33,756 nt of DNA from an uncultured Actinomycetota bacterium (GCA_964455605.1 CAYVWW010000001.1:1-33756), one strand, 5' to 3'; positions 1-15,008 are shown, counted from the stretch's first letter. Numbers and translations are program-made. Notes: generated by a model from the letters alone, not told the origin.

Positions 1-356
1 TCTCCTCCAATAACTATATCACCTGGACAGACATACGACTCAACCAGTATCTGGTGGCATATTCCTTTTCCAACTTCACTGATTCTTGAACCCGTACCGG
101 ATGCAAAATCTCTTAATATATTATGTGAATGTGAAAGTTCTTTTCTCGGACTTGGCGCTGAATGGTCAATAAAAAAAATAGATTTTTCAGGTTTTTTTAC
201 ACTACTGAAACCCATTTTCTTAAACTGGCTCACCGCAAGAGGTCCTGTACCGTCCTGCGACATCACAACATCCACATCAACTACGGCAATCTCGCCTGCT
301 TTTAATTCCCTGCCAGCATGCTCACTTATAATTTTTTCCGATATCGTCTTATCCAA
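1..356 (-). CDS. Aconitase-family dehydratase large subunit (LeuC/HacA type, 3-isopropylmalate or homoaconitate dehydratase); N-terminal part only, continues beyond the window edge
   Basis: Not in the ORF track because it is open at the window edge. My minus-strand translation from TTG at 356-354 reads (M)DKTISEKIISEHAGRELKAGEIAVVDVDVVMSQDGTGPLAVSQFKKMGF..IFFIDHSAPSP..GKGICHQILVESYVCPGDIVIGG. This matches typical LeuC/HacA N-termini. A GGAGG RBS sits at 365-361, and the gene lies 14 nt downstream of the preceding stop. Confidence 0.8.
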   Translation of the reverse strand, partial: MDKTISEKIISEHAGRELKAGEIAVVDVDVVMSQDGTGPLAVSQFKKMGFSSVKKPEKSIFFIDHSAPSPRKELSHSHNILRDFASGTGSRISEVGKGICHQILVESYVCPGDIVIGG

Positions 357-369
357 AAATCCTCCTACC

Positions 370-1551
370 TTACTCAGTATCCGCATCTTCCAGTTTCTTT
401 TTTTTATTCTTATTCTTTTTTACATAATCGTTATATATATACATCAGTTCCTTATCAAAAAGAGGCCTTTTCAAATCTATGGACATTTCCCTCGACATCG
501 CAAGTAAATCAGCTGCCTCCTTATCAGTAAGGTCTATGTTGAACTCTCTAAATTTATGAAGAATGGTATGGGATCCCGAGTGCTTACCTACGACAAGCTG
601 TCTTGTCAAACCAACTTCCTTGGGATTAAATACCTCATAATTTTTCGGATTTTTTATAACACCATCCGCATGTATCCCCGATTCATGAGCGAATACATTT
701 GTCCCGACGATCGCCTTCCATATAGGGATTGCACGCGATGAGGACCTTGCGACATATTCCGCAATTTCCCTGAACTTTGATGTATCGATACCGAGTTCTA
801 TATTTTCAAGGTATTTCAAAGCCATCACAATTTCCTCCATAGCAGCATTACCGGTGCCTTCCCCAAGTCCCCCCACGCTGGCTACCAGACTTGAAGCGCC
901 GCCTCTTATACCCGCCATCCCATTGGCGGTTGCCATACCAAAGTCATTATGATTGTAAACCTCAATGGGAATACTCACGGCACTTGTTATCGTACTTATA
1001 AGCAAAAAAGTCCTGAAAGGATCAAGCCGGCTCACCGTATCACAAATTCTAAACCTGTACGCACCCTTTTTTTCCGAAATAGATATTAACTTTAACAGGA
1101 ACTCAAGATCAGTACGCGTGGCATCCTCTGTACTTATTATGAAATTAAGCCCATTTTTCCGGGCAGTCTTTATAGCCTGCCTTAATTTGTCTACGACCCA
1201 TGTCCTGTTTTTCTTATATTTTTCCTTAATGTGAATATCAGAAGTAGAAATATTTATAACCACATTCTTCGCTCCACATTCTGCCGCATAATCAAGATGC
1301 CCCGGTTCCGCTTCGCAATAAACAAAAAGCTTTGCACCGAAATCTTCACTCAGCACATCCTTGATTGTCTCCCTCTCAAAAGATCCAAGGGCAGGCGTAC
1401 CTATCTCGATTTCAGGTATGCCTATTTCAGCAAGCATCCCTGTTATCCTTATTTTTTCATGTTTTGAAAAAACCACGCCTGCGGTTTGTTCTCCGTTTCT
1501 AAGGGTGGTATCTATAATATTTACATATTTTTCACTTTTAGCTATTGCCAT
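370..1551 (-). CDS. Homocitrate / 2-isopropylmalate / citramalate synthase family protein (DRE-TIM, HMGL-like; no LeuA regulatory domain); paralog with degenerate metal-site motifs
   Basis: 393 aa. Carries FAHESGIHADG, GKHSG and HNDFGMATAN. The barrel motifs are altered: DTTLRNGEQ (Asn for Asp), EVYNHND (Tyr for the first His of HxH) and GLGEGTGN. The ATG overlaps the upstream stop as TAATG. Confidence 0.85.
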   Translation of the reverse strand: MAIAKSEKYVNIIDTTLRNGEQTAGVVFSKHEKIRITGMLAEIGIPEIEIGTPALGSFERETIKDVLSEDFGAKLFVYCEAEPGHLDYAAECGAKNVVINISTSDIHIKEKYKKNRTWVVDKLRQAIKTARKNGLNFIISTEDATRTDLEFLLKLISISEKKGAYRFRICDTVSRLDPFRTFLLISTITSAVSIPIEVYNHNDFGMATANGMAGIRGGASSLVASVGGLGEGTGNAAMEEIVMALKYLENIELGIDTSKFREIAEYVARSSSRAIPIWKAIVGTNVFAHESGIHADGVIKNPKNYEVFNPKEVGLTRQLVVGKHSGSHTILHKFREFNIDLTDKEAADLLAMSREMSIDLKRPLFDKELMYIYNDYVKKNKNKKKKLEDADTE

Positions 1552-2765
1552 TATTTACCTCCCTTTTTGGCCGTAGTCTTTGCGACCTTTTTATTTTTAT
1601 ACGACTTATAGGTCTCAATTATTTCACTATCAAAAAGAGCTCTCTTGAGAGACACCGACTTATTCCTAACTATTTCTGCAAGTTCTTCGGCATCGTTTCT
1701 ACTTATTTTTATACCAAGTGAATCTAATTTATAGATTACTGTGTTTACTCCCGAGTATTTCCCGAGTATTATTTTTCTTTCCAGACCAACATCCTTGTCG
1801 CTGAACAATTCATAGGTCTCAGGATTTGCAAGAACACCGGAAGCTTTGCTTTCTGACTCATAAACAAATAAATTGCCTCCAACAATAGGTTTCCAGGTAG
1901 GAAGTACCCTGTTTGAAGCTCCTGCAACATATTCGGACAGCGACCTTAAATATTTAGTATCAAATCCCATATCAATGCCTTCAATATATTTTAAAGCCAT
2001 AATAAACTCTTCAAAAGCAGCATTTCCCGCTCTCTCTCCAAGACCGTTTACCGTCGTATTAACATAGGTCGCGCCTGCCTTAATACCTGCTATCGCATTT
2101 GCAATAGCCATACCGAAATCATTATGTGTGTGCATCTCAATATCTATCCCTATTATATCTATTATCGTCTTCACCCTTATGAAAGTCTCGAAAGGATCAA
2201 GAAGACCAAGAGTATCGCAATATCTCAATCTGTCTGCACCGGCGTCCCTAGCAGTCCTTGCAAAGGACAGAAGAAACTCCATATCCGAGCGCGAAGAATC
2301 CTCTGCATTAACCGAGACATAAAGATTATATCCTTTTGCATAATCAACACATTCCCGGACGCTTTCCAGCACCCACTCCCTGCTTTTCTTGAGTTTTTGT
2401 TCGATATGTATATCGGAAGAAGATATGGAAATAGCTACCGCATCAACACCGCACTCAACTGAAGCATCTATATCTGACTTAACAGCCCTGTTCCAGCCAA
2501 GTATGCTGCAGCCAAGACCGAGCGAAGCAATTTTTTTAATTGCTTCCTTCTCTTCTCCCCCCATCGTAGGTATACCAGCTTCTATCTGATGAACCCCTAT
2601 CTTATCGAGCATTTTTGCTATCTGTATTTTTTCTTCATTGGCAAATACAACTCCCGCAGTCTGCTCCCCATCTCTTAAAGTAGTGTCGTCTATCTTTATG
2701 TCTTTTGGATTGATTTTTGTACCCGCCTTCTGAGAAAATTCAGTGAATAAGTCTATTCCTTTCAT
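1551..2765 (-). CDS. Homocitrate / 2-isopropylmalate / citramalate synthase family protein (DRE-TIM, HMGL-like); paralog with intact barrel motifs but a degenerate GIHxD loop
   Basis: Carries DTTLRDGEQ, EMHTHNDFGMAIAN and TVNGLGERAGNAA. Where the family consensus has HESGIHxDG and GKHSG, this protein has FVYESESKASG and GKYSG. The ORF track starts at GTG 2774. I prefer ATG 2765 (MKGIDLF) because AGGTGA lies 5 nt upstream of it. Confidence 0.85.
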   Translation of the reverse strand: MKGIDLFTEFSQKAGTKINPKDIKIDDTTLRDGEQTAGVVFANEEKIQIAKMLDKIGVHQIEAGIPTMGGEEKEAIKKIASLGLGCSILGWNRAVKSDIDASVECGVDAVAISISSSDIHIEQKLKKSREWVLESVRECVDYAKGYNLYVSVNAEDSSRSDMEFLLSFARTARDAGADRLRYCDTLGLLDPFETFIRVKTIIDIIGIDIEMHTHNDFGMAIANAIAGIKAGATYVNTTVNGLGERAGNAAFEEFIMALKYIEGIDMGFDTKYLRSLSEYVAGASNRVLPTWKPIVGGNLFVYESESKASGVLANPETYELFSDKDVGLERKIILGKYSGVNTVIYKLDSLGIKISRNDAEELAEIVRNKSVSLKRALFDSEIIETYKSYKNKKVAKTTAKKGGK

Positions 2766-2962
2766 AACTGTCACCTCTTGACACCAATAAATATTTAAAA
2801 AGTTTAAAAAATTTATGAAAAACCATAAATTTTTATAATTTTCGTTACAATTATAACATTTTTTTAAAAAACATTATAATTTTTGCAAAAAATTTTGATA
2901 ATTTATAAAAATACCTTATTTTTTATATTTTTTTCCTTATTTTACTTAAAAAAAGCAGTAAT

Positions 2963-4213
2963 TTAAGAACTCTCACTACTCTTTTTGAATCTTAAAAATA
3001 AAAGCATAACGGATGCAACCATAGAAATTGCAGCTCCTGTCAGGAACGCCGCCCTGAAATTATATGCATTCCAAATAAACCCAAATACCACGGAAGCAGG
3101 AAGAGCTGCAATACCTATAGACAGATTATAAAATCCATAGGCGGTACCAAAACTTTTTTCAGGCACGATATCAGCTATAAGGGCTCTTTCGGCCCCTTCT
3201 GTCAGCCCGAAATATAATCCATAAACTACAAATAAAATATAAATAAGATAATCTTTATTTACATATGCAAAACCAAGATATGTAAGGAAATAAACAAACC
3301 AGCCCGATAAAATCATTATTTTTCTCCCTATTTTATCGGACATATAACCTCCCAGAGTGCCAAAAATGGCTTTGGATATATGCAAAATAGCCCATAAAAG
3401 GGGGATAACTGTTATCTCTATACCGAATTCCGACGCTCTTAGAAGTAAAAAAGCATCAGTTGAATTCCCAAGGGTAAAAATTATAATAATTACAATAAAT
3501 AGAGTAAACCTTTTACCAAGTTTCTTAAAATCAGAAAATTTTATCATTCCTGTTTTAGCATTTTCTTTTATAACAGGACTACCTTCCCCTATTTTACTCT
3601 TGATTTCAGCTGCATTCCTTTTGCTTTTTATCCCGAATATAACAAGCAGCACAGCAATAGCACCAGGCACTAGAGAAAGTAAAAAAACATTCCTGATGTC
3701 CACCGTAAAAAAATAAATAAGGATACTCGCAATAACCGAACCGAGCACTGCCCCGCTGTGGTCCATAGCACGCTGGAACCCGAAAGCAAAACCTCTTCTA
3801 CCTGCAGGCGAGTACCCCGCTATCATAGCATCCCTCGGAGATGTCCTTATGCCCTTACCTACCCTGTCAGAGAATCTCAAGAAAAGCAGCATGCCCCATG
3901 AGTTTATAAACCCGATAAGTGGTCTTAAAAGATTCGATAAGGCGTATCCTCCTACCACGAAGGGTTTTCTCTTATTAATTTTATCAGAAAAGTATCCTGC
4001 AAATAGCTTTAGAATGCTACTCGTACTTTCAGCAATTCCTTCAAGTACGCCAAGAAATGCAGAGCCTAACCCAAGGACCGATTTAATAAACGAGGGAATC
4101 AGGGGATATATCATTTCCGATGATATGTCGTTGAAGAGACTTACCGCTCCAAGGATATATACATTTTTAAACTGGCCATTACTTCTTTTATTTTTCTTTT
4201 TAGCACTGATCAA
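2963..4213 (-). CDS. MFS-type transporter
   Basis: 416 aa and multi-pass hydrophobic, about 12 TM by eye. Has an MFS motif-A-like loop (FSDRVGKGIRTSPRDA) and an N-terminal FNDISSEMIYPLIP segment. Apparent TTG start. Confidence 0.75.
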   Translation of the reverse strand: MISAKKKNKRSNGQFKNVYILGAVSLFNDISSEMIYPLIPSFIKSVLGLGSAFLGVLEGIAESTSSILKLFAGYFSDKINKRKPFVVGGYALSNLLRPLIGFINSWGMLLFLRFSDRVGKGIRTSPRDAMIAGYSPAGRRGFAFGFQRAMDHSGAVLGSVIASILIYFFTVDIRNVFLLSLVPGAIAVLLVIFGIKSKRNAAEIKSKIGEGSPVIKENAKTGMIKFSDFKKLGKRFTLFIVIIIIFTLGNSTDAFLLLRASEFGIEITVIPLLWAILHISKAIFGTLGGYMSDKIGRKIMILSGWFVYFLTYLGFAYVNKDYLIYILFVVYGLYFGLTEGAERALIADIVPEKSFGTAYGFYNLSIGIAALPASVVFGFIWNAYNFRAAFLTGAAISMVASVMLLFLRFKKSSESS

Positions 4214-4794: not shown

Positions 4795-5655
4795 ATGAAA
4801 AGTTTTATTAACACAACCAGATTAATAGTCGTATTCTTATTCATTTTCATGTTACTCTTTGATTCCTATGGATGTAAAACAAACTACCCTTCCGAAACAA
4901 CACCGGCAGATTCATCAGAAACATCCGGAGAATCACATACGGATATAACAGATGCCGAAAAGGAAAACGAAGAAGAAAATCTTGAAGATGAAGACGCCGT
5001 AGAAGAAATTACTGAGGACGAAATAGAAAACGAAATTTTCGCTACATTAAATAATTTCTTACAATCGGTAAAAGAAAATAAAGAATATGGCTTTTTTGAT
5101 AGCTACACCAGAGAAATGGTTGGTAGCGAAGAAGAATATCTGAATGGTTTAAAATCAGATTTATACTATATCATAAAAGAATCGCATTCAGCCTGGAAGA
5201 AACTTGAATTTAAAGACCTCCTGCTTGTTGATGACAGGGCAATAATAACTGTTACAGGCGACAGGAGTGCTGAAGGAACGGAATACATTGATGAAGAGGT
5301 AAAATTTAAATTCATAAAAGAAGATGGAACCTGGAAGATTGATGCCTATTATCCACTGGATATATTCGTAACACCCCTGAGTCCTGAACCAGAGAGCGCT
5401 CTAAGTTCTTCCGAAATAGACATACTCGAGATTTCTATAAAAATAAAGTCTTTTTTCGCAATCAATTCTATAAATTTAGAACTTAACGATTTTGAAAAAA
5501 GCCTGGCGCCCGGAGAAGAAAATCCTTACGAACCCGAAATAAGTACTGACGTACCAAAAAACTATCTATCAGATGGCTTAAATGAAATACATATTTCTAT
5601 CAATACCGTAGCCCAGACCACTGAAGACTTTAGCTGGAAATTTACCCTGGAGTAA
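4795..5655 (+). CDS. Putative lipoprotein with an acidic linker and an NTF2-like (DUF4878-like) domain
   Basis: Signal peptide followed by Cys (LLFDSYGC). Asp/Glu-rich linker. The segment FKFIKEDGTWKID resembles small NTF2-like lipoproteins. Confidence 0.65.
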   Translation: MKSFINTTRLIVVFLFIFMLLFDSYGCKTNYPSETTPADSSETSGESHTDITDAEKENEEENLEDEDAVEEITEDEIENEIFATLNNFLQSVKENKEYGFFDSYTREMVGSEEEYLNGLKSDLYYIIKESHSAWKKLEFKDLLLVDDRAIITVTGDRSAEGTEYIDEEVKFKFIKEDGTWKIDAYYPLDIFVTPLSPEPESALSSSEIDILEISIKIKSFFAINSINLELNDFEKSLAPGEENPYEPEISTDVPKNYLSDGLNEIHISINTVAQTTEDFSWKFTLE

Positions 5656-5811
5656 ACGCTACAATCCGCCCCTATTTTTTTCATAGCTTTTTATCATATA
5701 AAATATATAATTGTTATCTAATTGTCCGCGCGTGTAAAAACAGTTAAGACAATAAGCGCGGATATATATTTGTTTAAAGTTTTAATGAATATAAAATACC
5801 GGAATAATAAA

Positions 5812-6246
5812 ATGTTTTTTGTAAAAAATTATAAACGTAAAAAAAGCCGTTTCCGTAGCGTAATCGACCCGGAAACAAATGTCGATGGTACGATTTATTC
5901 TCCAGGATCAATTAAAATTGAAGGTGGAGCAACAGGAGAAATCATATCCAGGAAAGAAGTCGTAATCGGTCAGAATGGAAAAGTAAGAGCAAACATAAAA
6001 GCAAAAAATATAATAATAGATGGCAATTTCGTCGGTAACATTATTCTGCTCGGGGAAGCCAGAATAACTTCTACAGGGAAACTATTCGGCAATTTGATTC
6101 AAAGATATACCTCCCTGAGTATAGAGCCAGGAGGACTTTTTAGGGGTAAAAACATTCTCACAGATAATAAAGAAATATTTAACATAAATGATAAAAAAAT
6201 AGTTTCCAATATCAAAATTAAACCAAGAAAAATATTTGAATATTAG
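5812..6246 (+). CDS. Bactofilin (polymer-forming cytoskeletal protein, DUF583 family)
   Basis: Beta-helix repeat pattern GSIKIEGGATGEIISRKEVVIGQNGKVRANIKAKNIIIDGNFVGNI..ARITSTGKLFGNL. The ORF track begins at TTG 5722. I prefer ATG 5812 (MFFVKNYKRKKSRF), which gives a bactofilin-like basic N-terminus. Confidence 0.8.
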   Translation: MFFVKNYKRKKSRFRSVIDPETNVDGTIYSPGSIKIEGGATGEIISRKEVVIGQNGKVRANIKAKNIIIDGNFVGNIILLGEARITSTGKLFGNLIQRYTSLSIEPGGLFRGKNILTDNKEIFNINDKKIVSNIKIKPRKIFEY

Positions 6247-6333: not shown

Positions 6334-6834
6334 CTATAATTTCATATTATCTTCTATGTCACCAAGCTGAAATTCTCCCGTATCATTCTCCCTGGGTATC
6401 TCTACTTCTTCAACGGCTTCTTCTTTTGATTTTACCTTCTTCTTATCCTTTCCTGCTTCCTGCGTTATTCTTGTAACCTTACCGCTAAAAATACCTCCTT
6501 CTTTTATAACCAGCGAATCTGTTTTTATATTGCCATCAACCACACCTGTTTCCGTAATTTCAACTTTACCCGTACCTTTTAGATTCCCCTCGAATTTACC
6601 GATAATCCTGGCATCGATAGTTGTAACATCTGCGCTTACGGATCCTTCTTTCTGGATCACTATCTGACCGTCTACTTTCAGCTCTCCTATTACCTCGCAA
6701 CCAACCTCTATTGATTGAGAAATATCAAACTTGCCTTCTACCCTTGCTTTATTACCTACGATAGTCAGTAATGTTCTTGGCTCTTCACCTTCCGTAATTC
6801 CTTTCTCGCCTGCATCCCTGCCTGAAAAAACCAT
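6334..6834 (-). CDS. Bactofilin (polymer-forming cytoskeletal protein, DUF583 family) with an acidic/basic C-terminal tail
   Basis: IVGNKARVEGKFDISQSIEVGCEVIGELKVDGQIVIQKEGSVSADVTT..ARIIGKFEGNLKGTGKVEITETGVVDGNIKTDSLVIKEGGIFSGKV. An AAGGAGGGAGC RBS precedes the ATG. The start lies 31 nt downstream of the ParA-like gene. Confidence 0.85.
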   Translation of the reverse strand: MVFSGRDAGEKGITEGEEPRTLLTIVGNKARVEGKFDISQSIEVGCEVIGELKVDGQIVIQKEGSVSADVTTIDARIIGKFEGNLKGTGKVEITETGVVDGNIKTDSLVIKEGGIFSGKVTRITQEAGKDKKKVKSKEEAVEEVEIPRENDTGEFQLGDIEDNMKL

Positions 6835-6865: not shown

Positions 6866-7717
6866 TTAGCTAAAGCCGTTTATTGCTTTTTCAACCTTCG
6901 AAAATAAATTTATAATATCCCTTGACGCCTCAGTATTCGGAAATGATATAAAAACAGGTTCTTTGTTAAGAGAAATTGACTTTTGATAATCCACAAGATA
7001 TCTTATTCTTTGATCAAATATAGTCAATTTTTTCCCATAACTATTGTAAAGCTCTTCTATCATTTGCTCCGGGAGTTTACTTCTCTTTTCAAACGCATTG
7101 ATTATGATACCGGCAATTCTTACATTAACTTTATATTTTTTCTCAAGATTCTCGACTATTTTCCTTAAATAGTCTATATCCAGTATGGAGAACATCTCGG
7201 GCTTTATAACCGCAATAATATTCTGCGCATAAATAATCGATGTAACAGAAAGAAGCGAAAAATTAGGCTGGGAATCTATCACCACGTAATCATAATTATT
7301 TTTACTAATATTTGTGTCCAGTATCTTTCTTATCAGCATATTCCTGTAAAATGCCCTGTAAACTTTTTGCTCACTTAAAGACCTCTGTAATAAATAATCC
7401 GTAAGGAATTCCTCTACAAGCGAAATATTGTTAGAAGAAGGTAGCAAATCGATATTGCTGTTAATTTTTGTAGTATAATCCTTAAGATTTATATTCTTGC
7501 CCTTCAGATAGTCAATCATGAGATTGTCCATATTCTTTTTATCTTCAGCCATTTCAGCAACCTGTATGCCAAACGCCTGGGCAAGATTAGTCTGAGGGTC
7601 AAAATCCATGAAAAGCACTCTTTTATTTTTTTTGCTGGCAAGATACCAGCCAAAATTATAGCAGATAGTTGTTTTTCCTGTTCCACCCTTGGTATTAAAA
7701 AAAACAATCTTTTCCAT
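6866..7717 (-). CDS. ParA/MinD-family P-loop ATPase (deviant Walker A), orphan (no ParB adjacent)
   Basis: IVFFNTKGGTGKTT contains the deviant Walker A with signature Lys. FMDFDPQTNL and YVVIDSQP are Walker B-like. 283 aa. Confidence 0.85.
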   Translation of the reverse strand: MEKIVFFNTKGGTGKTTICYNFGWYLASKKNKRVLFMDFDPQTNLAQAFGIQVAEMAEDKKNMDNLMIDYLKGKNINLKDYTTKINSNIDLLPSSNNISLVEEFLTDYLLQRSLSEQKVYRAFYRNMLIRKILDTNISKNNYDYVVIDSQPNFSLLSVTSIIYAQNIIAVIKPEMFSILDIDYLRKIVENLEKKYKVNVRIAGIIINAFEKRSKLPEQMIEELYNSYGKKLTIFDQRIRYLVDYQKSISLNKEPVFISFPNTEASRDIINLFSKVEKAINGFS

Positions 7718-7959: not shown

Positions 7960-9411
7960 CTAGCCCTTTAAAACTCCAAGAGGCCTCAATCTTGCCACTT
8001 TTTTTGATATCCCCGCGTTATGCGCTATATCGACCACCTCATTTACATCCTTGTATGCCTGGGGAGCCTCCTCTGCCAGTCCCTGCATGCTACCCGCCAT
8101 AACTATAATTCCCTTCTTTTCAAAAAGCTCTTTCTTCAGCACGCTCCCCTGAACGACTTTCTTCGCCTTTGTCCTGCTCATAAGCCTTCCTGCTCCATGG
8201 CACGTGGAACCAAAACTCTCAGTCATTGCTTTTTGTGTGCCAGCAAGTATGTACGAATAGCGCCCCATATCGCCTGGAATTATTACCGGCTGTCCAATAT
8301 CTTTATACTTTTCCGGAATATCCCTGTGTCCCGGGGGGAATGCCCTTGTAGCTCCTTTTCTGTGCACGCAGACTTTTTTTACAGCACCATCGATATTATG
8401 CTCTTCAATCTTCGCTATATTATGAGACACATCATATATAAGATTTAAGCCCAATTTTTCCTGGGATTTGCCAAAAGACTTTTCCAGGACTTCCCTTGCC
8501 CAGCTGGCAAGACACTGCCTGTTTACCATGGCGTAATTAACGGCACATATCATTGCCCTGTAGTATCTCTTACCTTCTTCAGAATTTAAAGGAGCACATG
8601 CCAGTTGCCTGTCCTTGAGGTCTATCCCGTAGTTTGCGCTTGCCTGCTGCATCACTCTTAAATAATCGCTTGCTACCTGGTGCCCGAAACCCCTTGAGCC
8701 AGAATGTATCATAATGGTTACACCACCTTCTTCAAGATCCATGCAATCCGCAGCTTTCTTATCATAAATTTCATCTACCGCCTGGATCTCAAGGAAATGG
8801 TTACCTGACCCGAGAGTCCCTACCTGTTCAAGGCCTCTTTTCATTGCTGATGAGCTTATAAAATCGGTATTGCCGCCTTCCATGAACCCGCCTTCTTCTA
8901 TAAATAAGCTGTCCTCTGCCCAGCCGTAACCATTCTTAATTGCCCAATTAACACCTTTTTTTAACAATTCGGTTAGCTGGCTTTCTGAAAGTCTTATCTT
9001 TCCTCCTCCACCAACCCCCTTGGGTACGCTATATGATAAAATCCTCATAATTTCTTCAAGCTTGCCCTTTATATCCTCGTAACTTAAATTACTCCGCAAT
9101 ATCCTTACGCCGCAGGATATATCAAAGCCTACGCCTCCAGGCGAAATAACTCCATCCTCCTGCCCGAAAGCAGCTACTCCCCCTATAGGGAACCCGTAGC
9201 CATAATGTATGTCAGGCATAGCGAAAGAAGCTTTTATAATACCCGGAAGCGTGGCAACATTTATCACCTGGTCCAGAGTTCTCTCTTTTACCGCGTTATC
9301 CAGAAAATTTTTATCTGCAAAAACTATTCCCGGGACCCTCATACCATATTTTTCATCTTTTTCTATTTCCCACTTATAGTCACTTATTTTTTTAATGTTA
9401 TAACCGCTCAT
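7960..9411 (-). CDS. rtcB: RNA 3'-phosphate/2',3'-cyclic phosphate-5'-OH ligase RtcB
   Basis: 483 aa with GSGNHFLEIQ, HSGSRGFGHQ and TCHGAGR (the His that becomes guanylylated). Confidence 0.95.
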   Translation of the reverse strand: MSGYNIKKISDYKWEIEKDEKYGMRVPGIVFADKNFLDNAVKERTLDQVINVATLPGIIKASFAMPDIHYGYGFPIGGVAAFGQEDGVISPGGVGFDISCGVRILRSNLSYEDIKGKLEEIMRILSYSVPKGVGGGGKIRLSESQLTELLKKGVNWAIKNGYGWAEDSLFIEEGGFMEGGNTDFISSSAMKRGLEQVGTLGSGNHFLEIQAVDEIYDKKAADCMDLEEGGVTIMIHSGSRGFGHQVASDYLRVMQQASANYGIDLKDRQLACAPLNSEEGKRYYRAMICAVNYAMVNRQCLASWAREVLEKSFGKSQEKLGLNLIYDVSHNIAKIEEHNIDGAVKKVCVHRKGATRAFPPGHRDIPEKYKDIGQPVIIPGDMGRYSYILAGTQKAMTESFGSTCHGAGRLMSRTKAKKVVQGSVLKKELFEKKGIIVMAGSMQGLAEEAPQAYKDVNEVVDIAHNAGISKKVARLRPLGVLKG

Positions 9412-9428
9412 CTGAAACTCCCCCTCCG

Positions 9429-9887
9429 CTAAACATCGAAAATAACCCTTCCCTTCCAGTTCCCGCTTTCTTTGTCTTTACTTACTTCGAGTTTATGATA
9501 AGTTGCCGCTTTAACGCCAGCCCTTAATTTATGCCTTTGCAGGTCCATATGCTCGCCATATATTTCTGCCTTCAGCATCATGCTTCCGTCTTTTTCCTTA
9601 ATTTCTGCTATCCTGAAATCTGAAAATAACATATTGTTAACTTCATAAAGGTAAACCAGCCTATCAAGCCATGATATAACAAGGTCTTCATAATCGGCAT
9701 TTTTCACACTGACTGTAACAGTCTTTTTTACTACCGGCTTGATAGTTTTCAAATCACACATAATAGAAAACATTCCAGCTGCTGCATTCTCAAAAAGCTG
9801 CTCCAGTCTGCTACCATAAAAATCAATCCCGATATCAGAAAGATGCTCTATGTAACTGTATTTTTTTATGTTTATTTTATTTTTCAT
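9429..9887 (-). CDS. Archease (RtcB activator)
   Basis: YIEHLSDIGIDFYG (family consensus EHTADIG), GVKAATYHKLEV and the C-terminal VIFDV. The stop lies 17 nt upstream of rtcB. The ORF track starts at GTG 9893; I prefer ATG 9887. Confidence 0.9.
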   Translation of the reverse strand: MKNKINIKKYSYIEHLSDIGIDFYGSRLEQLFENAAAGMFSIMCDLKTIKPVVKKTVTVSVKNADYEDLVISWLDRLVYLYEVNNMLFSDFRIAEIKEKDGSMMLKAEIYGEHMDLQRHKLRAGVKAATYHKLEVSKDKESGNWKGRVIFDV

Positions 9888-10081
9888 GCCCACCCTTATA
9901 AATTTTTACAGGCGTTCAAGTTTACCAAATATTATTTAGACCAGTTTTCGCATACAGGTTAGCCGGAATATCTTTTACCGCAGATACAAAACACGGAACC
10001 TCTGCTTAAGGGAAAATATTCTCATTAAAAATCAAAATGAAATTCAGGCAAAATAATTAATTGAAAACCTCTTGCCGCAAA

Positions 10082-14920: not shown

Positions 14921-15008
14921 TGGTGCCCGAGGCCGGAATCGAACCGGCACGAGGAAAAACCCCAACGGATTTTAAGTCCGTTGCGTCTACCAATTCCGCC
15001 ACTCGGGC
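14921..15008 (-). tRNA. tRNA-Leu (anticodon UAA), class II with a long variable arm, CCA encoded
   Basis: The minus strand reads GCCCGAG-TG-GCGGAATTGGTAGACGC-A-ACGGA-CTTAAAA-TCCGT-variable arm-GCCGG-TTCGATT-CCGGC-CTCGGGC-A-CCA. All stems pair. Confidence 0.95.

Follow-up and report, generated by a model that had tools for sequence, protein, structure and literature searches.

How can a single metabolic step be served by two adjoining genes of one synthase family, both full length, if each product is altered in a different part of the active site? This question is raised by a stretch of 33,756 nucleotides from an uncultured Actinomycetota bacterium (GCA_964455605.1; CAYVWW010000001.1:1-33756), the whole of which is referred to as the window and which carries two such paralogs, called gene A and gene B. 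Its source belongs to an uncultured actinobacterial lineage, labelled Candidatus Humimicrobiaceae or Humimicrobiales in the records and termed Humimicrobiia here. Sequence, family architecture and comparative data together indicate that A and B probably constitute an obligate heteromer with one composite active site.

Two synthase paralogs with overlapping genes

The two genes and their junction were located as follows:

1551..2765, minus strand: gene A, HMGL-like/HCS_D2 synthase paralog of 404 amino acids (aa), ATG start; based on open reading frame (ORF), translation and Pfam
370..1551, minus strand: gene B, HMGL-like/HCS_D2 synthase paralog of 393 aa; based on ORF, translation and Pfam
1549..1553, minus strand: TAATG, in which the TAA stop codon of A overlaps the ATG of B, with GGAGG directly upstream; read from the sequence

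An earlier reading of this stretch, made from the sequence alone (the sequence-only reading), had described two full-length synthases with a TAATG overlap at 1549-1553, which is borne out by the ORFs, the Pfam matches and the sequence itself. Indeed, PF00682 (HMGL-like) matched A with an E-value of 1e-81 and B with one of 7e-69, PF22617 (HCS_D2) was found in both proteins, and A and B could be aligned without gaps over 369 residues at 46% identity. The top NCBIfam match of both was TIGR02660 (nifV_homocitr), with scores of 471.6 for A, which passes the cutoff of 462.9 narrowly, and 439.0 for B, which falls below it. A candidate earlier start of A, GTG at 2774, lies within the Shine-Dalgarno sequence AGAGGTG, so that the ATG at 2765 is the likely start; a 100% identical protein in this 404-aa form was called on a public 38.9-kb contig of NCBI. 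The TAATG overlap and the GGAGG in front of it suggest translational coupling of A and B, and overlaps or very short gaps between the two genes were recurrent among orthologous pairs. Monomer models made with AlphaFold2 (AF2) contained good barrels (predicted local distance difference test, pLDDT, 80-82; B model 82.5), and a Foldseek search with the model of B returned template modelling (TM) scores of 0.83-0.84 to 6E1J and 6KTQ. [quoted passage not shown]

Catalytic residues of A and B

Residues were mapped by HMMER alignments of A and B to two solved relatives, namely homocitrate synthase of S. pombe (SpHCS; 3IVS) and methylthioalkylmalate synthase of B. juncea (MAMS; 6E1J). In 3IVS, the SEQRES index equals the residue number plus five, and at this offset 14 out of 14 known residue identities of SpHCS landed on the right letters, so that numbering and alignment are both validated. 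Glu44, His224 and His226 are the metal ligands of SpHCS and His321' is its catalytic residue, and their residue identities were matched in the alignment. For MAMS, the residue roles were established by mutagenesis: the essential metal is bound by Asp90, His288 and His290, Arg89 is essential, Thr257 is involved in substrate binding, and Tyr399 stacks on His388, the general base, of which the H388A/Q/D/E variants are dead and the H388N variant is 29-42-fold down (PMC11532901). Homocitrate synthase is a dimer of barrels and accessory domains, and in isopropylmalate synthase (IPMS) the accessory domain with His379 sits on the partner chain's catalytic domain (PMC9860122). On this basis, the following segments were assigned in the window:

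2670..2675, minus strand: Arg31-Asp32 of A (LRDGEQ), invariant Arg and metal Asp kept; equivalent to R43/E44 of SpHCS and R89/D90 of MAMS
2124..2132, minus strand: His212-Thr-His214 of A (HTHND), both metal His kept
2031..2033, minus strand: Arg245 of A (GLGERAGN), kept
1836..1868, minus strand: residues 300-310 of A, FVYESESKASG for FxHESGIHxDG; Tyr302 replaces His, Glu305 replaces Gly and Lys307 replaces the general-base His
1495..1500, minus strand: Arg18-Asn19 of B (LRNGEQ), metal Asp changed to Asn (AAC, 1495-1497), Arg kept
949..957, minus strand: Tyr199-Asn-His201 of B (YNHND), first metal His changed to Tyr, second His kept
856..858, minus strand: Gly232 of B (GLGEGTGN), Arg of GxGERxG changed to Gly
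1030..1032, minus strand: Ser174 of B (CDTVS), Gly of DTxG changed to Ser
1297..1314, minus strand: Glu80 and His85 of B, replacing the conserved barrel residues Arg93 and Asp98 (A numbering); additional to those listed in the sequence-only reading
661..693, minus strand: residues 287-297 of B, FAHESGIHADG, intact trans loop; His294 is the predicted general base for the barrel of A

The equivalent positions in both proteins were:

Essential Arg (MAMS Arg89): R31 in A, R18 in B
Metal Asp (MAMS Asp90): D32 in A, N19 in B
First metal His (MAMS His288): H212 in A, Y199 in B
Second metal His (MAMS His290): H214 in A, H201 in B
Substrate Thr (MAMS Thr257): T185 in A, T172 in B
Gly after the substrate Thr: G187 in A (CDTLG), S174 in B
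Position of MAMS Glu227: E155 in A, E142 in B
General-base His (MAMS His388, SpHCS His321'): K307 in A, H294 in B
Stacking Tyr (MAMS Tyr399): Y318 in A, Y305 in B

Thus, the metal triad and the Arg are complete in A, B has the Arg and the second His only, and one full set is present per pair. Every motif that had been quoted for A and B was found at its place by codon coordinates, and the alignments with SpHCS and MAMS agree in placing the altered positions at the metal ligands and within the trans catalytic loop. Two details had to be revised. The catalytic loop of A is degenerate, as had been proposed, but the loss of its first His is not decisive. On the alignments, the catalytic histidine is the second His of HESGIH, and Tyr at the first His is tolerated in stand-alone enzymes of the family; hence the decisive loss in A is that of the second His together with the change of Gly to Glu. 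Furthermore, GKHSG had been taken as a family consensus, but it is typical only of a subgroup resembling NifV and Re-citrate synthase, the solved relatives displaying DKYTG, SRLTG and GKLSG in a column that is less than 85% conserved. The change at this position, with GKYSG in A and GKHSG in B, therefore carries little weight.

Reciprocal loss of family-conserved columns

What the family conserves was defined by searching 1.84 billion cluster representatives and keeping the best 150, among which 49 columns were at least 85% conserved. Throughout 34 distinct Humimicrobiia pairs, the losses of A amounted to three columns, each within the trans loop (302, 305 and 307), and those of B to five, each within the barrel (93, 98, 187, 212 and 245); none of the 49 was lost in both. 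Column 93 changed from Arg to Glu in B and column 98 from Asp to Asn or His across these pairs. In addition, B carries D32N (A numbering), a position occupied by Asp or Glu elsewhere in the family. The complementary motif pattern was invariant in all 34 orthologous pairs, as were the barrel residues Arg31-Asp32, His212, His214 and Arg245 of A and the loop residues H289, G292, I293, H294, D296 and G297 of B. This invariance, combined with the clean split of the lost columns, indicates that the pattern is not due to chance. The stacking Tyr of A (Y318) was relaxed to Phe in six of the 34 orthologs.

Selection was distributed in the same reciprocal way. Mean identities were obtained from 561 comparisons of Humimicrobiia genomes, and ratios of nonsynonymous to synonymous substitution rates (dN/dS, omega) from 27 close genome pairs:

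Barrel of A: mean identity 88.8%, dN/dS 0.034
Barrel of B: mean identity 76.9%, dN/dS 0.056
C-domain of A: mean identity 71.2%, dN/dS 0.076
C-domain of B: mean identity 87.4%, dN/dS 0.048

The asymmetry had this direction in 100% of the comparisons for the barrels and in 99% for the C-domains, and the same direction was seen in the other lineages with such pairs. The parts predicted to form a live site, i.e., the barrel of A and the C-domain of B, are under the strongest constraint. Constraint on the 'dead' parts is weaker by about two-fold, yet a need for them as folded protein clearly persists, all four parts being under purifying selection.

Co-inheritance of the pair and order of the losses

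The occurrence of both types as neighbours was surveyed by scanning one genome per species with B, and then with a DNA pattern for the loop of A (K.I.G.N.F.YE.E). The scan with B returned 18 loci of the Humimicrobiia lineage, with A immediately upstream in 17; the exception was cut by a contig end. Genes of the A type were found in three groups, namely Humimicrobiia, Thermoleophilia/Gaiellales and Anaerolineae (Chloroflexota). Out of 61 distinct A-type ORFs, 58 were directly followed by a partner on the same strand, and the other three had less than 1200 nt of DNA downstream. The phylogenomic survey that the sequence-only reading had proposed thus found the B-type partner directly downstream in 58 of the 58 readable A-type loci, and an A-type gene without a partner, which would have spoken against the proposed heterodimer, did not occur among these. 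In total, at least 44 distinct pairs from three bacterial lineages were surveyed, and hundreds more A- and B-type sequences are present in metagenomes.

The A clade and the B clade were each monophyletic in 100 out of 100 neighbour-joining bootstraps, and their internal topologies were parallel, which indicates that A and B have been inherited together as a pair. Canonical singletons of Clostridium grouped with A in no more than 62 of the 100 bootstraps, which is too few to place them nearer to either paralog. Since canonical singletons are the outgroups, the dead barrel of B is a derived state. The partners of the A-type genes differ among the three groups. In Humimicrobiia, the barrel of B is dead (Asn, Tyr, Gly and Ser at the altered positions); the partner in Thermoleophilia has retained its metal ligands and its Arg but reads DSL[SA] (CDSL[SA]) at the DTxG motif; and in the Anaerolineae-like loci, the motifs of the partner are fully canonical while the loop of A is already dead. 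This intermediate state was exposed by the representative library, in which the B clade had collapsed to one representative with canonical motifs. From these intermediates it follows that the loop of A was lost first and that the barrel of B was lost later, only in Humimicrobiia; the order of events was duplication, loss of the loop of A and loss of the barrel of B. Hence, the reciprocal degeneration described before holds with respect to the columns (three in the loop, five in the barrel), but it was neither symmetric nor a one-step event, as the loop of A died first in a wider clade. The replacement loop of A is itself conserved at Y302, E303, E305 and K/R307 in all three lineages, and the positions in between vary. 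Taken together, the co-occurrence of both genes and the reciprocal conservation of the barrel of A and the C-domain of B lend strong support to the interpretation of A and B as a putative heteromer.

One Humimicrobiia locus has gone further: in an uncultured Actinomycetota bacterium (L075:4882-7304; CAYMPQ010000016.1), B is more degenerate, with GDNAS for CDTVS and YTKND for YNHND, so that Thr172 and His201 are lost too, while its HESGIHADG loop and its A partner are normal. Such additional degeneration is as expected for a dead site.

A locus of an uncultured Anaerolineales bacterium (L095:4820-8000; CAYORF010000002.1) contains a third synthase gene immediately upstream of A and B, giving three in a row; its product is canonical and of the HCS/LysS type (LREGEQ, HGHND, FTHKAGIHAKA).

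Operon context and probable reaction

In the Humimicrobiia loci, the pair is part of an operon of the order A, B, HacA, HacB and a gene for a protein resembling isocitrate dehydrogenase (IDH). The dehydratase consists of a HacA/LeuC-type large subunit and a HacB/LeuD-type small subunit, the first of which begins in the window:

1..356, minus strand: start of the next operon gene, HacA/LeuC-type dehydratase large subunit; TTG start at 356, AGGAGG upstream, continuing past the window edge

The dehydrogenase scored about 400 bits with models of isocitrate dehydrogenase, about 350 with those of homoisocitrate dehydrogenase and about 180-190 with LeuB. Given the types of dehydratase and dehydrogenase, the product of the synthase is more likely to be a tricarboxylate, either citrate or homocitrate, than isopropylmalate or citramalate. 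The closest singletons are Clostridium genes of about 50% identity with all motifs canonical, which are followed by a gene for an aconitase of 645 aa and, in one case, also by one for IDH. This layout corresponds to that of CA_C0970-0972, shown biochemically to encode a Re-citrate synthase, an aconitase and an isocitrate dehydrogenase (PMC4669385), and thereby favours citrate. Similarly, out of 23 positions sampled in the barrel pocket, A shares 22 with the clostridial singletons, whereas its pocket is unlike that of NifV-like representatives. In SpHCS, the C5 carboxylate of 2-oxoglutarate is bound by H103, R163 and S165, which correspond to W91, S151 and N153 in A. On balance, sequence and context tip towards the pair being a Re-citrate synthase, converting oxaloacetate and acetyl-CoA into citrate, and not a NifV. 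The citrate would then be passed on to the HacAB-like dehydratase and the IDH-like dehydrogenase, yielding 2-oxoglutarate.

In the public records, A is named 'homocitrate synthase' and B 'homocitrate synthase family protein'. The names of relatives are inconsistent, as the name '2-phosphonomethylmalate synthase' is given to one A-type protein and 'homoaconitate hydratase' to one of the B type (P0321 and P0057); the other named relatives are mostly 'homocitrate synthase (NifV)' or 'homocitrate synthase family protein'. The majority of the listed proteins are nameless.

Proposed mechanism and alternative explanations

It is proposed that A and B together make up a single heteromeric Claisen-condensing synthase of two subunits, A being the catalytic-barrel subunit and B the loop-donor subunit. 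The dimer of this family would be domain-swapped, the C-terminal accessory subdomain of each chain capping the TIM-barrel site of the other and donating the general-base His. The live site would consist of Arg31, Asp32, Glu155, Thr185, His212, His214 and Arg245 of the barrel of A and of His294 of B, stacked on Tyr305. The mirror site, formed by the barrel of B and the loop of A, would be devoid of two metal-site residues, three other conserved barrel residues and the catalytic His, and would be catalytically dead but retained as a folded scaffold. As a homodimer of A would have no base and a homodimer of B no metal site, only the mixed dimer would be active in Humimicrobiia. After the duplication, A lost its loop at a time when B was a complete enzyme, and the redundant barrel of B subsequently decayed in Humimicrobiia. 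A more elaborate version, put forward with considerable reserve, is a stepwise ratchet from a homodimer to an obligate heterodimer, in which the mirror site has become a new metal-free ligand or latch site, made up of the Asn/Tyr/Gly/Ser pocket of B and the Y-E-x-E-x-K/R loop of A, that tunes or stabilizes the catalytic site. Its surviving stages would be the singleton (Clostridium), the pair with a dead loop in A (Anaerolineae), the pair with a partly altered B (Thermoleophilia) and the pair with a dead B (Humimicrobiia).

Several observations weigh against this proposal, or against parts of it. The Y-E-x-E-x-[KR] loop of A is a conserved motif rather than the outcome of random decay. Similarly, the Asn, Tyr, Gly and Ser substitutions of B are invariant and its barrel has an omega of 0.056, indicating that the 'dead' site is strongly constrained and could keep a binding role. 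Altered-loop members of the family also occur without an adjoining paralog (L059 and L060), and the AF2 monomers are of low confidence exactly at the decisive loops, although this would be expected of segments that pack on a partner. As for the reaction, the substrate assignment comes from gene context and similarity, all dehydratase equivalog scores and all dehydrogenase scores lie below the curated cutoffs of NCBIfam, the dehydratase subunits passing the broader hacA_fam and LeuD/DmdB subfamily models only, and in the Anaerolineae-like loci the pair has no adjoining HacAB or IDH genes.

The strong constraint on the mirror site could mean that the heteromer has one catalytic site and that the barrel of B and the loop of A have turned into an allosteric or effector site, B being chiefly regulatory. 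This refinement of the proposed heteromer is compatible with the invariance of N19, Y199, G232 and S174 of B and of the loop motif of A in the 34 pairs, with the low omega of the barrel of B and with the retention therein of Arg18, Glu142, Thr172 and His201; moreover, homocitrate synthase is stated to be inhibited by its end product lysine, which occupies the active site (PMC9860122). It is nevertheless rather unlikely, as B of the L075 lineage has lost Thr172 and His201 too, the barrel of B was the faster-evolving barrel in every comparison, and no ligand can be named. That A is an active homodimer using another base (Lys/Arg307, Tyr302 or Glu155), B having a non-catalytic and unrelated binding or regulatory role, would agree with the score of A alone above the NifV equivalog cutoff, with the altered-loop members that have no adjoining paralog and with the residual activity of the H388N variant of MAMS (PMC11532901). 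However, the other substitutions of this His (H388A/Q/D/E) are dead (PMC11532901), position 307 alternates between Lys and Arg among the A-type proteins, which would be unusual for a base, and the C-domain of A and the rest of its loop are the least conserved and the loop of B is invariant, the opposite of what independent functions would predict. Together with the adjacency in 58 out of 58 loci and the co-phylogeny, this makes independent functions improbable. It is hardly credible that B is a decaying, functionless duplicate on its way to a pseudogene: its barrel indeed lacks six conserved residues and evolves faster than that of A, but its ORF is intact in every genome examined, its omega is 0.056 in the barrel and 0.048 in the C-domain, its catalytic loop is invariant, and it is probably translationally coupled to A.

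With regard to the reaction, the second possibility is that the pair is a homocitrate synthase, condensing 2-oxoglutarate with acetyl-CoA for a homoaconitase and a homoisocitrate dehydrogenase in chemistry of the 2-oxoadipate/lysine type or, less likely, a NifV serving nitrogenase. The top match of both proteins to TIGR02660, the dehydratase subunits scoring above the hacA_fam and LeuD/DmdB subfamily cutoffs, and the public names are all in line with this. It appears doubtful all the same, given that no nif genes were found among the genes of the 33.7-kb window or downstream in related loci, that no LysX/Z/Y/J/K-type genes were found among the few annotated flanking genes of related loci, that the C5-carboxylate residues of SpHCS are replaced in A, that the pocket of A resembles that of the aconitase-linked clostridial singletons and not that of NifV-like representatives, and that the dehydrogenase scores best with isocitrate dehydrogenase models.

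Other relatives with altered loops or barrels

The two altered-loop members without an adjoining paralog (L059:978-2114, JGI 3300081534; L060:2223-3317, Logan SRR22746143) have altered trans loops that were compared by a quick, uncertain alignment. One of them reads FDHESEIPSAV and GKHTE and lies between genes for the alpha subunit of succinyl-CoA ligase and an Si-type citrate synthase; the other has an apparently shortened loop, and the genes around it, for AnfO, P-II and an ammonium transporter, give it a nif/anf-like context. Both (P0124/L059 and P0134/L060) were discounted as counter-examples, as their loops differ from the A type, one keeping the first His, and the alignment is uncertain.

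Singleton HMGL-like proteins of Bathyarchaeia, encoded by metagenome-assembled genomes (L074, L084, L089, L101, L116, L120 and L128), have a loop of the form F[SA]YE[AGV]EEH[IV], in which the first His is changed to Tyr and the Gly to Glu and the second His is kept. They represent a distinct degenerate subgroup, and their assignment to the A type was rejected because of the retained second His. In L084 and L101, the barrel motifs read LSEGVQ and QCHND, so that neither the invariant Arg nor the first His of the metal site is present. A further HMGL-like/HCS_D2 protein (P0236; L056:1-1150; GCA_038562245.1, JBCFAQ010000257.1), with about 34% identity to B, combines a perfect loop (FRHESGIHADG/GKHSG) with a barrel of far greater degeneracy (LLACTR, CDSNG, QTNNQ, GLGANTKT). 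Its gene lies at a contig edge, the upstream side not being visible, and is followed by genes for a sigma-54 activator and an MTTB-family methyltransferase. Judging from these motifs, P0236 may be an independent 'loop-donor' pseudoenzyme.

Comparison with known systems

The Re-citrate synthases of Clostridium (C. kluyveri; CitA of C. acetobutylicum, CA_C0970) share the family of A and B, with an HMGL-like barrel and HCS_D2, and a similar operon logic, in which the synthase is followed by an aconitase-type dehydratase and an isocitrate-type dehydrogenase. However, the Clostridium singletons likened to CA_C0970 by gene layout are one gene with all motifs intact, whereas two complementary paralogs are found here, and their dehydratase is a fused 645-aa aconitase instead of the two-subunit HacAB/LeuCD type. 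NifV (TIGR02660), the best-scoring curated model for both proteins, has the same domain architecture, but it is a single-gene enzyme in a nif context, whereas the present pair consists of two genes without nif context, with B below the cutoff and a different pocket. In C. pasteurianum, nifV-omega and nifV-alpha reportedly represent the N- and C-terminal portions of a split gene (Wang, Dean, Chen and Johnson, J Bacteriol 1991). The likeness is that of two adjoining genes for one synthase, with barrel and C-terminal functions on separate polypeptides. In contrast to that split, A and B are full length with both domains, each with a vestigial copy of the function of the other.

Association of paralogs is known from fungal isopropylmalate synthases, such as Leu4 and Leu9 of S. 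cerevisiae, which form mixed oligomers. A paralog pair of this enzyme in K. lactis is discussed in a further article (PMC7418496). These fungal paralogs associate, yet both subunits are complete and active, and the role of the hetero-oligomers is the tuning of feedback regulation, not the assembly of an active site. Full-text literature searches for heteromeric homocitrate, Re-citrate or isopropylmalate synthases returned only such fungal hetero-oligomers, and no case of active-site complementation between paralogs was found in the literature searched for Claisen-condensing synthases of the DRE-TIM superfamily. Outside this superfamily, complementary paralogs with one live and one dead site at their interface occur in trypanosomatid deoxyhypusine synthase and in heterodimeric ABC transporters, of whose ATP sites one is degenerate. 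These share the logic of the present pair, but folds and chemistry are unrelated, so that they remain analogies only. As complementary pseudoenzyme paralogs are known in unrelated families, A and B do not constitute a new category of enzyme; what appears to be new is the complementation variant within the family of IPMS, homocitrate synthase (HCS) and citramalate synthase (CMS), the principle itself being known elsewhere.

Other features of the window

Upstream of A, the following spacer was noted:

2766..2962, minus strand: AT-rich spacer, probable operon promoter region; sigma-70-like site at 2901-2873, consensus match only

It is about 85-90% A+T and contains many imperfect direct and inverted repeats based on TTATAA and ATTTTT units. 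These repeats were rejected as a regulatory element, as they appear to be low-complexity matches. Promoter and terminator scans of the region upstream of A returned matches at background level, not above shuffled expectation, and an Rfam scan of the same region returned no regulatory RNA. Beyond the spacer lies a gene for a major facilitator superfamily (MFS) transporter (2963-4213, minus strand), and an MFS gene also precedes the pair in L006 and L008.

The remaining features were:

4795-5655, plus strand: acidic protein of 286 aa, N-terminus resembling a signal peptide, no match in Pfam
5722-6246, plus strand: bactofilin gene
6334-6834, minus strand: bactofilin gene, on the strand opposite to the first
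6866-7717, minus strand: ParA/MinD-type ATPase gene, adjoining the bactofilin genes
7960-9893, minus strand: RtcB RNA ligase (483 aa), directly preceded by archease (154 aa)
14921-15008, minus strand: tRNA-Leu(TAA), the sole RNA gene detected in the window

Archease is a known activator of RtcB, and the two form a known pairing. In L018, two stretches of RtcB match an intein-containing RtcB model with a score below its cutoff.

Implications

If A and B do form the proposed enzyme, it would be the first natural heteromer of the IPMS/HCS/CMS family built on active-site complementation and, if its second site is indeed altered as described, the first synthase of the DRE-TIM superfamily to be half-of-sites by design. 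Mixed dimers have been engineered earlier for studying the trans histidine and half-of-sites behaviour (PMC9860122), and the pair would offer a ready-made natural system for both. It also leads to a clear prediction, namely that B alone would be active in Anaerolineae-type pairs and not in those of Humimicrobiia, and that A alone would be inactive everywhere. From an evolutionary viewpoint, the three lineages and the singletons may provide an unusually complete series of intermediates for the conversion of a paralog into an indispensable pseudoenzyme partner. With respect to annotation, two adjacent 'homocitrate synthase (NifV)' labels imply nitrogen fixation or lysine biosynthesis, whereas the present data suggest two subunits of one enzyme. 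[quoted passage not shown]

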